From an uncultured Gemmatimonadota bacterium (GTDB lineage: Bacteria; SM23-81; DAOVCL01): a stretch of 17,752 bases of DNA. The translations under genes and the position numbers were made by a program. Below, piece after piece: positions 2,120 through 11,894 of this stretch (position 1 is its first letter; each line of letters starts with the position of its first letter). The notes beneath the pieces were generated by a model that worked only from the letters and a program-made list of their open reading frames with translations, had not been told where the DNA came from and made no database searches. The stretch is from contig CAZVGK010000046.1 in assembly GCA_964626665.1 (NCBI GenBank), positions 1 to 17,752 of the forward strand, written 5' to 3'.

Positions 2120-2148
2120 AGGTGACTGAAGAGGGCTTCTGCCACCTC
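2120..2148. repeat. GGTGGCAGA-loop-TCTGCCACC hairpin repeat, copy 1
   Basis: Reverse complement gaggtggcagaagccctcttcagtcacct is nearly identical to 4794-4821. Confidence 0.75.
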
Positions 2149-3192: not shown

Positions 3193-3262
3193 AATCCCTC
3201 CCTGGTTTAGTTTTCTCGAGAGCCGTCAGATCCCTTGATCTTACGGAGAAGGGGGCAAAATG

Positions 3263-4100
3263 GTCGGGTAAAGAACAGGCGCATAGCAGTTGTAAGGCCA
3301 ATTTATGACTGTCACCAGTCAATCGCAATGTCGATTAAGTGCCTGCGGATGGCACCCTCCCAACATCTATGTTTCCTGCTCCTCCCCTAAAATTCCGTAC
3401 ATCGGGTTTTCCCACAGTACGGCTTCAAGTCCAGGCGCCTCTCAGCTCGCTGTGAGCCCTTCCCTGAACACCTGCTTCAGACTACGTCTGACCCCCGACT
3501 ATCTGATACAGATACCCAGGTTTGACCCACGCTTAGAGACATCGGTTTTGTTGACATCTTTATTCCATCTCTAAGTCTGGAAGATGTATCCCCATTGCCC
3601 CCTCCTGAACCCAGAGGCCCTCGCTCCACCAAGTTTATCATCCTCTCGGCTTCATCACTTATCGGCCTCATCCGCCAGTCTGCAGACCTCCGTTCCACTT
3701 CCCTTCTCAGGTTATAGGTCCGGCCTTTGTCATTCAAGGATCATCCTGACTGGCCTGCAGACCTTCCGAGCTTTCTCTGCTGACCTCTCCAGAATTGCCG
3801 CCTTCAGTCCGCCGGGAGCCTCCTTGTGTGCTCTCCCCAGTTCCTTCCACAAGGATACCAGCCATCACCCCGAACCCCAGGAGGTTTGGCGACTCCAACA
3901 AGGTGGCTTTTCGACGCCTACTCCGTTCGCTCTCGCTACGGCCCTTCTGGTTGCTCGCCTCCCTAAAAGAAGGCTTTTACTTCCGAGCTTTCAGCCATAG
4001 AGGTCACCCCCAATGACTGTCGGATATAACTACGCTGCCAAACTGGGAATTGCAACGGTGGGACTTTCACCCACAAGGTCAGCAGATAGCTTCGCTGCAC
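3263..4100 (-). mobile_element. Group II intron RNA lacking an intron-encoded RT ORF (838 nt)
   Basis: 5' end GTGCAGCGAAGC at 4100. The 5' segment agctatctgctgacct pairs with aggtcagcagagaaagct (about 3787-3770) to close domain I. Domain V is AAGCCGTACTGTGGGAAAACCCGATGTACGGAATTT (3425-3390) with AGC triad. Domain VI runs gcagg...gcgcctgttctttACCCGAC, ending in AC at 3263. No RT motifs in any frame. Confidence 0.88.
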
Positions 4101-4115
4101 GGGCTCTGCCACCTC

Positions 4116-4202
4116 AGTTGGAATTCGAGGAACCTGCCCTCGATCAATGTTGCGTAAGTCTCGTTCTGCGGATCCCTTCCATCGAATCTCATAGGAGTCC
4201 AC
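4116..4202 (-). pseudogene. Truncated RelE/ParE-family toxin (N-terminal ~27 aa only)
   Basis: MDSYEIRWKGSAERDLRNIDRGQVPRI resembles RelE N-termini and overlaps the antitoxin stop. Similarity ends at the hairpin repeat/intron. Confidence 0.7.
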
Positions 4203-4382
4203 CTTTTTTCAGCCGCTTTTTAAGTTCCTCGAAAGTTATCGTAGGCTCATCCCGGCGCTCAGCAATGATTGCAAGGTCCTGAAGATCTTCTAAAAGTTCT
4301 TCATACTCCTCAATAGGAAGAACTACTGCTATTTTTTTTGTCCCCTTTCATCTACAATATATTGCCCTTGAAATTTCTTCAA
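4189..4382 (-). pseudogene. Small antitoxin-like protein, frameshifted at an A8 run
   Basis: AGGAGG RBS, TTG at 4382: MKKFQGQYIVDERGQK, frameshift at 4332-4339, then IAVVLPIEEYEELLEDLQDLAIIAERRDEPTITFEELKKRLKKGGLL*. Not in the ORF track. Confidence 0.75.
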
Positions 4383-4645
4383 TACTTGCCTCCTTGAATT
4401 TCCAACTCTTGGTTCCATCTAATAACCCGGGTTCCGAAAAACCGTGAGTTGCCTCTGTAAATGTCTGAAGAAATTTTAGATATATTGCCAGAATCTGTGA
4501 ACTGCAATTCCCCTCGAGATCCAAACATCTCTATATTTCAATAAGTTACTTTGTTTCTCTTCTCTCACTAAAGCCTGTGGCTACCGATTGCACAACCAAA
4601 AAGGCAAATCAGCATGGTGTCCCCAAAATTATCTTGACTATATGA

Positions 4646-4765
4646 GAGAGGTCTCCTGACCTTTCAAGCGCTGTCAGCCCCGTTCCGACGGGATTCCTGG
4701 CGGAAGAGGTAACTCCTGACAGCACATTTTTGACCGGCATCGGGAGATTCTCCCACAACATACAC
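4646..4765 (+). repeat. ~120-bp REPIN/MITE-like element, copy A
   Basis: Highly similar to the reverse complement of 10966-11086, including the identical core gctgtcagccccgttccgacgggattcctggcggaagaggtaactcctga. Confidence 0.85.
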
Positions 4766-4793
4766 TTACCCGGCTTTAGCTGGGGGTTCCCGT

Positions 4794-4821
4794 GAGGTGG
4801 CAGAAGCCCTCTCCTGCCACC
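4794..4821. repeat. GGTGGCAGA hairpin repeat, copy 2 (could also act as terminator of the activase operon)
   Basis: gaggtggcagaagccctctcctgccacc, about 30 nt past the stop at 4850. Confidence 0.75.
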
Positions 4822-4849
4822 CGATTATCCTGGGGTAATGGGTGGTGGG

Positions 4850-9563: not shown

Positions 9564-10736
9564 TCAATTTGGGACACTTCCCACAATTTGCGCCCTATGA
9601 GCGAACGGGGTTACATAGCCTAATGCAGAATGATACCGCTCGTAATTGTAGTGTTCAATCCGTTCTTTGATAAGCTGGTTTAAGTGTGCAAATGATTCGG
9701 CTTCCACCGGATCCAGACCCTCTTTCACCGTTCTGTTGACCCGTTCAATCTCGGCATTTTCATTAGGGCAATGTGGATGAATATAATGATGCTCAATCTC
9801 AGCTCGGGAAAGCAAACTCTTAAATTCCTGGCTGATGTAACAGCTGCCGTTATCTGTCTGCAAAATTGGATGCTGACCAGTCTCATCAAGCGCATCTGCA
9901 AACGCATCTCGGACTGTTTCTCCCGTCATCTGAAGACAAAGACGCCAATAAACGATGAAACGAGAATATACATCCAAAAAGAGCAACAGATAATGATCTC
10001 GACTGCGGTAGCAAATATATGTCAAGTCCGATTGCCAGACTTCATCCGCACCTGATGGCGACCGATGAGGATCCCATTTGTTATCCCTCTTTCTTAAGGT
10101 GTGCTGAGGTATTAAATTATAATCCCTTAAGATGCGATATACACTCGATGGACTCATGTAGGCAACATCCTCATCTATCATCCGATAAGCCATCTCCCGA
10201 TGCCTTAGCTCAGTATGAGCCAAGGCATATTCCCTGGCTGCCTGGTGTTCCTCAAGCGTGATGGTCTGAAGCTGAACTCTCTCCACTCTGTCGCACAGGC
10301 GATATTCCCGTTCAGCAAAACCATAAAAAGTCTTTATGCTTATCCCCCATTTCCGACATATGCCTTGTCTGCTCCAGCCGTATGATGAATACCTTTGAAC
10401 CATATCCCAGAGCTCAATCCTGTCTCCAGGACTTAAACGCTTGTAAGGCTTCAGGGCGAAAGTTTTTTTTAACTCTAACGCCTCTTCCGTCACGGCTGCG
10501 ATAATACTGTCTTTGCGCTGTAGTTCGGCTTCCAACCTCTTTACCTTCACTTGCGTGGCTCTTGAGGGTTTGGTAAATAACGAATCCGCATTGGATAACA
10601 TCTGCGATTGCCACCTGTAAATAAAAGCATCGCTGATCCCCTTACTACGACAATATGCGGCTACACCGTCTGGATACTTCAGCGCTTGCAAAACCGATTT
10701 GACTTTAAATCTTGCGCTATACTTCTGAGTGGGCAT
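9564..10736 (-). CDS. IS3-family transposase (OrfAB in one frame; C-terminus probably truncated)
   Basis: N-terminal HTH (KYSARFKVKSVL..GISDAFIYRWQ), coiled coil ending LELKK, and rve DDE core WQSDLTYI..LDVYSR..TDNGSCY..P.ENAEIERVNRTVKE..YNYERYHSALGYVTP. Confidence 0.92.
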   Translation of the reverse strand: MPTQKYSARFKVKSVLQALKYPDGVAAYCRSKGISDAFIYRWQSQMLSNADSLFTKPSRATQVKVKRLEAELQRKDSIIAAVTEEALELKKTFALKPYKRLSPGDRIELWDMVQRYSSYGWSRQGICRKWGISIKTFYGFAEREYRLCDRVERVQLQTITLEEHQAAREYALAHTELRHREMAYRMIDEDVAYMSPSSVYRILRDYNLIPQHTLRKRDNKWDPHRSPSGADEVWQSDLTYICYRSRDHYLLLFLDVYSRFIVYWRLCLQMTGETVRDAFADALDETGQHPILQTDNGSCYISQEFKSLLSRAEIEHHYIHPHCPNENAEIERVNRTVKEGLDPVEAESFAHLNQLIKERIEHYNYERYHSALGYVTPFAHRAQIVGSVPN

Positions 10737-11273: not shown

Positions 11274-11867
11274 AGAAAAGTCCCGCCGAAGCAGCTAAGT
11301 TCAAGGCAGGTCGGTTTCTGTTTGGGCTCCTGCCCTGACGGGGGATTAGAAACCATTCTACCGCACTTTAGTGCGGGTTAAGGGCCTTAAGGCCCTCCTA
11401 TTGAGGGCTAAAGCCCCCCAAAACCCCTCGGCTACCCGTCCCGAACCGGAACGGGTCGGGTAGAAATACCCTTGGTCTGACCGGGCGTCTCGGAAATTCT
11501 ATAAGTTCCGAGCCAGTCATCAGGGGGTTTGGGGGAAACGATGTGCTTTCCCCCAAGGGGTAACAGTTTCGATCTGTCGGGACGCCATATCCCGAGAGAA
11601 TCGGGATTGGAAGTTAATGAACAAAGTGAACTAACTTGATGTTTCGGAATTTCCAAGAAATTCCGAAACGTCGGGGAATGTTTGAAGGGGGTAGGCCCCC
11701 TTCAAGGGTGACAGCGGAGCAATCCGAGCGAGCACAGGATTGCGGAGCGCCATAGGGCCGGTGAGGCCCTCTCTGGAGAAGTTAGCGACCGAAGGGAGCT
11801 AAGTTCGGAGGGTATGTAGGGGTCGCATTTATGCGACCCGAATCTTGCTGCCATTGGAGGGCAAAAA

Positions 11868-11894
11868 AGGTGGCAGAACTGGGTTCTGCCACCT
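11868..11894. repeat. GGTGGCAGA hairpin repeat, copy 3
   Basis: aggtggcagaac-tgg-gttctgccacct, a perfect 12-bp stem. Confidence 0.8.

Follow-up and report, generated by a model that had tools for sequence, protein, structure and literature searches.

The window (the whole stretch of 17,752 nucleotides that was analyzed) carries on its minus strand, at 4100..3263, an 838-nt group II intron without an open reading frame (ORF), which starts with GUGCAG and ends with CCCGAC. The intron has the same orientation as both of its neighbors, lying 934 nt downstream of a gene for a BcrAD/BadFG-type activase and 70 nt upstream of a gene for a protein with a TonB_C domain. Its 5' exon falls within a decayed toxin-antitoxin remnant. 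An N-terminally truncated RelB-like antitoxin frame is found there at 4192-4347 (minus strand; PF18506, 23.3 bits, below the cutoff), and an overlapping frame at 4101-4202 (minus strand), which by eye and with no Pfam match resembles the start of a RelE/ParE toxin, runs into the hairpin that holds the intron. Promoter and terminator scans near the intron remained at or below shuffled expectation. Mobile and repeated DNA is plentiful in the window: an IS3-family transposase (rve, HTH_Tnp_1) is encoded at 9564-10736 (minus strand), and further short dispersed repeats occupy 4640-4830, in the gap between the intron and the activase gene, with dozens of matches at 80 to 100% identity in genomes G001 and G002. 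The locus is real, and an independent metagenome contig (L018) has flanks identical to it over 400 of 400 bases on each side; moreover, at least half of the sampled words are present in 21 of the 24 public runs listed. None of the runs catalogued as RNA contains the stretch. A search for the intron in a plasmid collection gave no match.

The intron splits a hairpin into two parts, AGGTGGCAGAGCCC and CATTTTGCCCCCT. The 5' exon (4101..4114, minus strand) consists of the 5' arm and the first loop bases, whereas the 3' exon (3250..3262, minus strand) consists of the remaining loop and a degenerate 3' arm, which reads CGATTCTGCCACC in canonical copies. With a caret marking the splice junctions, the minus strand reads ...AGGTGGCAGAGCCC^GTGCAGCG...CCCGAC^CATTTTGCCCCCT, or, in longer context, ...CCAACTGAGGTGGCAGAGCCC^GTGCAGCGAAGC ... 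CTTTACCCGAC^CATTTTGCCCCCTTC. An earlier, sequence-only reading of this DNA had reported that removal of 3263-4100 rejoins a hairpin related to one further along the window. The rejoined 27-mer indeed equals the reverse complement of 11868-11894 at 22 of 27 positions (20 of 27 on the forward strand), and the junctions confirm the accompanying claim that insertion took place within the loop rather than after the stem.

The Rfam model RF02003 (group-II-D1D4-4) matches the core of domain I at 4076..3931 (minus strand) with 72.8 bits and an E value of 1.4e-14, against a gathering score of 49, and it is the sole Rfam family above threshold across the whole window. Four other full-length intron copies match the same model at 67.6 to 73.5 bits. 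This match, together with the lack of any RVT_1 or GIIM match in the genome, upholds the identification of the element as an ORF-less group II intron. The 838-nt sequence folds better than its shuffles (z = -6.5), and a consensus fold of the seven full-length copies has six domains, with a domain I of about 360 nt and six pairs changed on both sides. The six full-length relatives are 837 to 871 nt long, and all are without an RT gene. Group II introns have the 5'-end consensus GUGYG; all seven full-length copies begin instead with GUGCAG, so that position 5 is A and not G. The G045 intron, present as a 5' fragment only, starts with GUGCAG too.

Of the covariance models by which the sequence-only reading proposed to judge the element, the D1D4 model matches above its cutoff, whereas RF00029, the Rfam model for domains V and VI, finds no match in the window at E values up to 10. 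It likewise finds none in four other copies at E values up to 0.1. The same model scores 38.5 to 56 bits on six other introns. These are the intron of G001, a fragment on contig C5 of the present genome, and, from distant genomes, four of the six D1D4-4-type introns examined. A canonical domain V is a 34-nt hairpin with an AGC triad, a 2-nt bulge, and a GNRA-type loop. Alignment of domain V of this intron (3389..3426, minus strand) with that of the six others shows the AGC triad (3424-3422), an AU bulge, and a GAAAA loop all present, with two insertions, an extra U in the upper helix and an AA (3394-3393) that separates the C-G pair of the triad from the U run. The divergent copy at L023 is without the extra U, shows a matching G-to-A change, and keeps the AA. 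An alternative fold of domain V, with a 2x2 internal loop in place of the bulge, was rejected; the canonical architecture with two small insertions fits L023 and the six other introns better. Domain V is the least variable region of the family: domain V and the junctions together have 2 variable columns of 50, compared with 74 of 358 in domain I and 33 of 167 in domain IV.

Domain VI of group II introns carries a bulged A 7 or 8 nt from the 3' splice site. In this intron domain VI is 122 nt long (3266..3387, minus strand), with an insert of about 85 nt forming three hairpins in its distal part. The bulged A of this domain is A3269; it lies 7 nt from the 3' end and separates a stem of 3 bp from one of 10 bp. 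All 13 basal pairs are kept in the seven distinct sequences. Two pairs of domain VI show compensatory changes, a value reached in 19 of 500 shuffles, which is a weak statistic because the copies are close to each other. Given the AA insertion by the triad and the A at position 5, activity of the intron cannot be assumed. Contig C5 of this genome has a canonical domain V-VI at 18860-18931 (L001 1501-1572; RF00029, 50.4 bits) without a recognizable 5' intron part upstream, which is probably the 3' fragment of another group II intron. An unrelated genome contains a D1D4-4-type intron that is about 800 nt long, apparently ORF-less, and near-canonical in its domain V (L073, G139:C5:94900-98900; RF00029, 38.5 bits).

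The hairpin that houses the intron is one of 171 copies (at most one mismatch per arm core) in the genome searched, a 3.17-Mb assembly of 63 contigs. With the intron removed it folds at -11.8 kcal/mol, compared with -17.5 kcal/mol for a canonical copy. Hairpins with perfect 10-nt arms (GGTGGCAGAA N4-8 TTCTGCCACC) number 84 here and 39 and 42 in two other genomes of the genus; none was found in four other genomes of the phylum, and a control with the reversed pattern gave zero, so that the copies are not due to chance. In this comparison of three genomes of the genus with four others of the phylum, the family occurs only in the genus. The unit is oriented, with the consensus aaaa.cGA-GGTGGCAGAA-CCCCGA-TTCTGCCACC-.tcccct, and 159 of 170 copies lie outside crude ORFs, which make up 81% of the genome. 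The orientation of the hairpins relative to genes is unbiased (76 versus 82), which leaves a role as terminators unsupported. The family is REP-like in form, being a short imperfect palindrome with many intergenic copies. No RAYT link was found: just one of eight PF01797 (Y1-transposase-like) matches has a hairpin within 1.5 kb, on one side only.

The three empty copies that the sequence-only reading listed in the window are not of equal standing. Those at 4796..4821 (plus strand), with a loop, GCCCTC, that does not match EBS1 of the intron, and at 11869..11893 (plus strand) are clear members of the family, whereas the one placed at 2120-2148 is a degenerate copy at 2121..2146 (plus strand). 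The exact 14-nt target, GGTGGCAGAACCCC, occurs unoccupied 86 times in this genome, and only about three sites are filled.

Other copies of the intron share this setting. Four contigs of the assembly break within intron copies: C35 and C28 end GAGGTGGCAGAACCC^GTGCAGCG..., and C47 and C62 begin or end ...TTTACCCAAC^CGATTCTGCCA(C/T)C. All three 5' junctions in this genome read GAGGTGGCAGA(A/G)CCC, a sequence that precedes the intron also in the metagenome loci L010, L012, and L024, and two of three 3' junctions read CGATTCTGCCA(C/T)C, the 3' half of the hairpin in the window itself being degenerate. Public metagenome contigs were scanned with a pattern internal to the 3' end of the intron, so that the flanks of the 18 loci retrieved are unselected. 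At 13 of these, which represent nine distinct sites as judged by the flanks, the intron occupies the same loop position, GGTGGCAGAACCC^CGATTCTGCCACC, and is followed by the 3' arm of the hairpin (CGATTCTGCC..., CGGTTCTGCC..., CCGTTCTGCC..., or the CATTTTGCC... of the window). Insertion in hairpin-borne copies is always after CCC in the loop. The idea that the repeat family serves as a multicopy target thus holds, with hairpin halves beside the intron at 3 of 3 5' junctions and 3 of 3 3' junctions in the genome (the degenerate half of the window included) and at 13 of 18 metagenome loci. In four of the remaining loci the intron is followed by TTCAAGGGTGACAGCGG, from a hairpin of a second dispersed repeat, and in one (L023) by unrelated sequence. 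The latter locus (L023:1-1264) is a divergent family member beside an unrelated target, and about 500 nt from it, on the other strand, lies a different group II intron (D1D4-2, 116 bits). DNA searches at the family, order, and class levels led to no more than the same three genomes each time.

The specificity of insertion can be followed in the exon-binding sites. EBS2, GCCACC (3907-3902, minus strand), is complementary over 6 bp to IBS2, GGUGGC, in the 5' arm of the hairpin. EBS1, GGGUUC (3877-3872, minus strand), which the consensus fold places in a terminal loop, is complementary over 6 bp to GAACCC, so that the target of the two segments in the hairpin is GGUGGC-A-GAACCC. In the window, IBS1 reads GAGCCC and would form one G-U pair with EBS1. 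G3878, just 5' of EBS1, is in a delta-like position and could pair with the first C of the 3' exon. The segment GGGGUUC (3878-3872), previously put forward as an exon-binding candidate, therefore corresponds to EBS1 plus this adjacent G. The other candidate, CUGGGG (3840-3835), was dropped as unneeded, the pairing with GGUGGC of the 5' arm being provided by GCCACC.

A sister subfamily, represented by L014, has a different target. Its EBS1 is changed from GGGUUC to GGGGCC and faces an IBS1 of GGCCCC, and its EBS2 is changed from GCCACC to (U)CCCC(UU) and faces a 5' exon that carries (AA)GGGG(G); the exon reads AAGGGGGUAGGCCCC^ or, in longer form, ...TTTGAAGGGGGTAGGCCCC^. The sequence inserted into is hairpin 2 (TTGAAGGGGG-TAGG-CCCC^CTTCAA) of a dispersed multihairpin repeat of about 175 nt, for which Rfam has no match and of which 25 alignable empty copies exist in this genome. 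One of these is in the window, where hairpin 2 (11687..11714, plus strand) has no intron in it; introns of the L014 subfamily insert at sites of this type, after GGCCCC. By complementarity, the subfamily is shown to have changed both EBS segments and to occupy a hairpin of the second repeat. The second repeat, whose copy in the window spans about 11650-11830, consists of five palindromes in succession. The intron copy targeting this repeat (L014:777-1647, minus strand) has in addition, near the 5' end of its domain I, an inserted hairpin of 33 nt (alignment columns 29 to 61) that is unique to it.

These matched changes bear on the reading of the element as a MITE-like DNA transposon, in which the hairpin halves would be terminal inverted repeats and the solo hairpins minimal derivatives. 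Inverted repeats (GGTGGCAGAA ... TTCTGCCACC) do flank the element, and eight Y1-transposase-like matches are present in the genome. The L014 subfamily already contradicts this reading, having unrelated flanks with matching EBS changes; furthermore, the element possesses group II domains I, V, and VI, and only one of the eight Y1 matches has a hairpin within 1.5 kb. We regard a DNA transposon as extremely improbable.

The choice of target is most simply explained by base pairing to the repeat sequence, for which recognition of the hairpin shape appears unnecessary. A different possibility is that the RNP recognizes the DNA hairpin itself, as class IIC introns do with terminator or attC stem-loops, this ability having arisen separately in a lineage outside class IIC whose insertions lie within the hairpin. 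Both targets are hairpins, in two unrelated repeat families, and the candidate RT (439 amino acids, RT and X domains) has no endonuclease domain, introns of which kind use replication-fork DNA according to PMC4424553. On the other hand, the stem includes IBS2 and half of IBS1, so that a folded hairpin would compete with EBS pairing, and the insertion point is not constant relative to the structure, falling in the loop in the first repeat and 4 nt into the 3' arm in the second. Twelve EBS/IBS base pairs and the +1 C already explain the specificity, and most dispersed repeats of this genome are palindromic anyway. Guidance by structure is thus unlikely, even if it deserves more weight than a DNA transposon or the immobile relic considered next.

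Several observations speak of movement. The 3' flank of the occupied site L016 matches an empty hairpin at C10:53281-53306, and at the occupied site L025 a stretch of 393 nt of flank is 83% identical to an empty copy of the second repeat near C7:11431. Copies at different loci differ by as few as three positions (L018 versus L010). The window copy and L018:10707-11546, at the same locus with identical flanks, differ at 18 positions, at which the window copy mostly resembles L024, as it does in its central part. Either gene conversion between copies or chimerism of the short-read assembly may lie behind this. The junctions can be relied on, the interior of the intron less so. A search for the orthologous empty site in G001 and G002 with 3 kb of window DNA matched only the activase gene and other dispersed repeats. 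As its own hairpin is degenerate, the window copy may be old.

It could therefore be asked whether the family consists of immobile relics, that is, decaying introns that do not splice and survive in harmless intergenic repeats. This would account for the failure of RF00029 on domain V, the AA at the triad, the A at position 5, the lack of an RT in the assembly in searches with PF00078 and PF08388, and the degenerate hairpin of the window. It fits poorly with a domain V that varies least of all regions and whose oddities are kept in the divergent L023, with the near identity of copies at different loci, with empty orthologous sites in relatives, and with exon-binding sites that took on a new repeat as target when the odd domain V was already in place. 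We consider it very unlikely. The odd catalytic end predates the retargeting to the second repeat and is therefore presumably compatible with reverse splicing.

Mobility would require an RT supplied in trans. Six-frame searches with PF00078 (RVT_1) and PF08388 (GIIM) found none in this assembly or in the retrieved loci, and neither did tblastn with the RT of G001. The sequence-only reading had advised a search for a related RT-encoding intron. One exists in complete form in this sister genome, whereas in the present genome only ends of such introns were found, all at the edges of contigs (C52:1-307, C40:22915-23154, and the final 54 nt of C57, which are 96% identical to the 3' end of the G001 intron). 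The G001 intron encodes a 439-amino-acid RT/maturase (TIGR04416, 381 bits) that has only the RT and X domains, without an endonuclease domain. Its DIVa region and RT start are 78% identical over 60 nt to 3592-3533 of the window, a DIVa-like stem-loop (3533..3592, minus strand) in which the ORF-less intron retains the opening four codons (MSTK) of a G001-type RT frame, including a relict ATG (3557-3555). Thus, an endonuclease-less RT intron of the G001 type is the likely source of the RT, as inferred from this remnant.

In all four salt-marsh runs that hold this genome, a 1.6-kb contig aligns to the RT gene with about 78 to 88% identity. Its depth is 1.9 to 2.2 times that of the contig of the C2 locus of this genome in all four runs, which is a weak hint, as depths are not copy numbers, and the RT contigs in public runs could belong to another organism. 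At C40:22915-23154 and C52:1-307, as in G001:C109 (L005), the 5' exon of the RT-type introns ends with a Shine-Dalgarno-like motif followed by ATG (GGAGG...ATGA^GTGCG or ...ATGG^GTGCG), which suggests homing to translation-start regions. One RT-type intron in the public runs follows a sequence that is present three times without an intron in this genome (C11, C19, and C21).

Taken together, the element is with high probability an ORF-less, non-autonomous group II intron whose retrohoming target is a palindromic, REP-like repeat specific to the genus, used in a single orientation. The existence of an intron family specialized on palindromic repeats is real and well supported; its splicing and mobility are inferred. 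The intron would be transcribed with its neighbors and spliced with lariat branching at A3269, rebuilding an intact hairpin in the RNA, in which the ligated exons would read ...GGCAGAGCCC-CATTTTGCC. The excised intron would then reverse-splice into empty copies of the repeat and be copied into DNA by an RT acting in trans, probably that of a G001-type endonuclease-less intron, the DIVa binding site and start codon of which the ORF-less intron still carries. The occupancy of about 3 sites against 86 exact unoccupied 14-nt targets counts against this explanation. The intron nevertheless appears to live on the repeats of its own genome.

A broader proposal, which we offer as tentative, is that an RT-less group II intron lineage with a remodeled catalytic end (A at position 5, an AA-bulged domain V, and an enlarged domain VI) is a hyperparasite of palindromic repeat families that switches between families and possibly reads hairpin structure. 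Having no RT gene and a domain V that escapes the Rfam model, such a lineage would be missed by surveys based on RT and on the Rfam domain V, and ORF-less bacterial introns could be commoner than counted. PMC8919778 describes a survey pipeline that starts from RT domains or RF00029, and pipelines of this type are expected to miss the present family for the same two reasons. The review PMC4424553 cautions that ORF-less introns could have escaped notice only with a domain V different from those known, and the domain V of this family is unusual.

A dispersed repeat provides an intron with numerous places where insertion does no harm, and the hairpin would be re-formed in the RNA on splicing. The family is also a natural test case for the change that a catalytic domain V tolerates. 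Class IIC introns are not known to have an EBS2, and their domain I is small. Membership in this class was rejected for the present intron, which is inserted in a loop, has an EBS2 that covaries with its target, and has a domain I of about 360 nt; with an EBS2 and a full-size domain I it is not class IIC-like. The two share an association with intergenic DNA stem-loops, and the candidate RT here has no endonuclease domain. According to PMC4424553 (Zimmerly and Semper 2015), however, class IIC introns insert after the stem-loop, whereas this intron sits inside the hairpin, with EBS2 and EBS1 pairing with the 5' arm.

Bacterial group II introns have three target strategies according to PMC4424553, directed at homing sites, terminators, and attC sites. 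A strategy dedicated to the loops of a REP-like repeat, and extended by a switch to another family of repeats, would be a fourth. RmInt1 of Sinorhizobium meliloti reportedly homes, with an endonuclease-less RT, into a multicopy mobile element, ISRm2011-2. Unlike the intron described here, RmInt1 has an RT gene of its own, and it targets a gene of an insertion sequence and not a 26-nt palindrome. The full-text literature searched, from which subscription journals are mostly absent, contained no account of group II introns that home to the loops of REP-like repeats, and the supplementary tables of PMC8919778 and PMC2882425 may hold cases. REP-targeting insertion sequences are similar in that mobile elements land in extragenic palindromes, and a table in PMC1525189 (Tobes and Pareja 2006) includes a group II intron of Pseudomonas putida with two of nine copies (22%) associated with REPs. 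These elements are mostly DNA transposons, and the association of the intron is weak, in contrast to the 13 of 18 loci (nine distinct sites) at one exact loop position found here.

The closest known system is the ORF-less TeI3 family of Thermosynechococcus elongatus. According to PMC2882425 (Mohr et al. 2010), its deletion derivatives likewise keep remnants of the RT frame and DIVa, have multiplied and diverged into families by EBS changes, and rely on the RTs of related introns in trans. Palindromic targets are not reported for TeI3 in that text, in which the strings "palindrom" and "hairpin" do not occur, whereas the intron described here is distinguished by two dispersed repeat families as targets, a domain V undetected by Rfam, and a large insert in domain VI.
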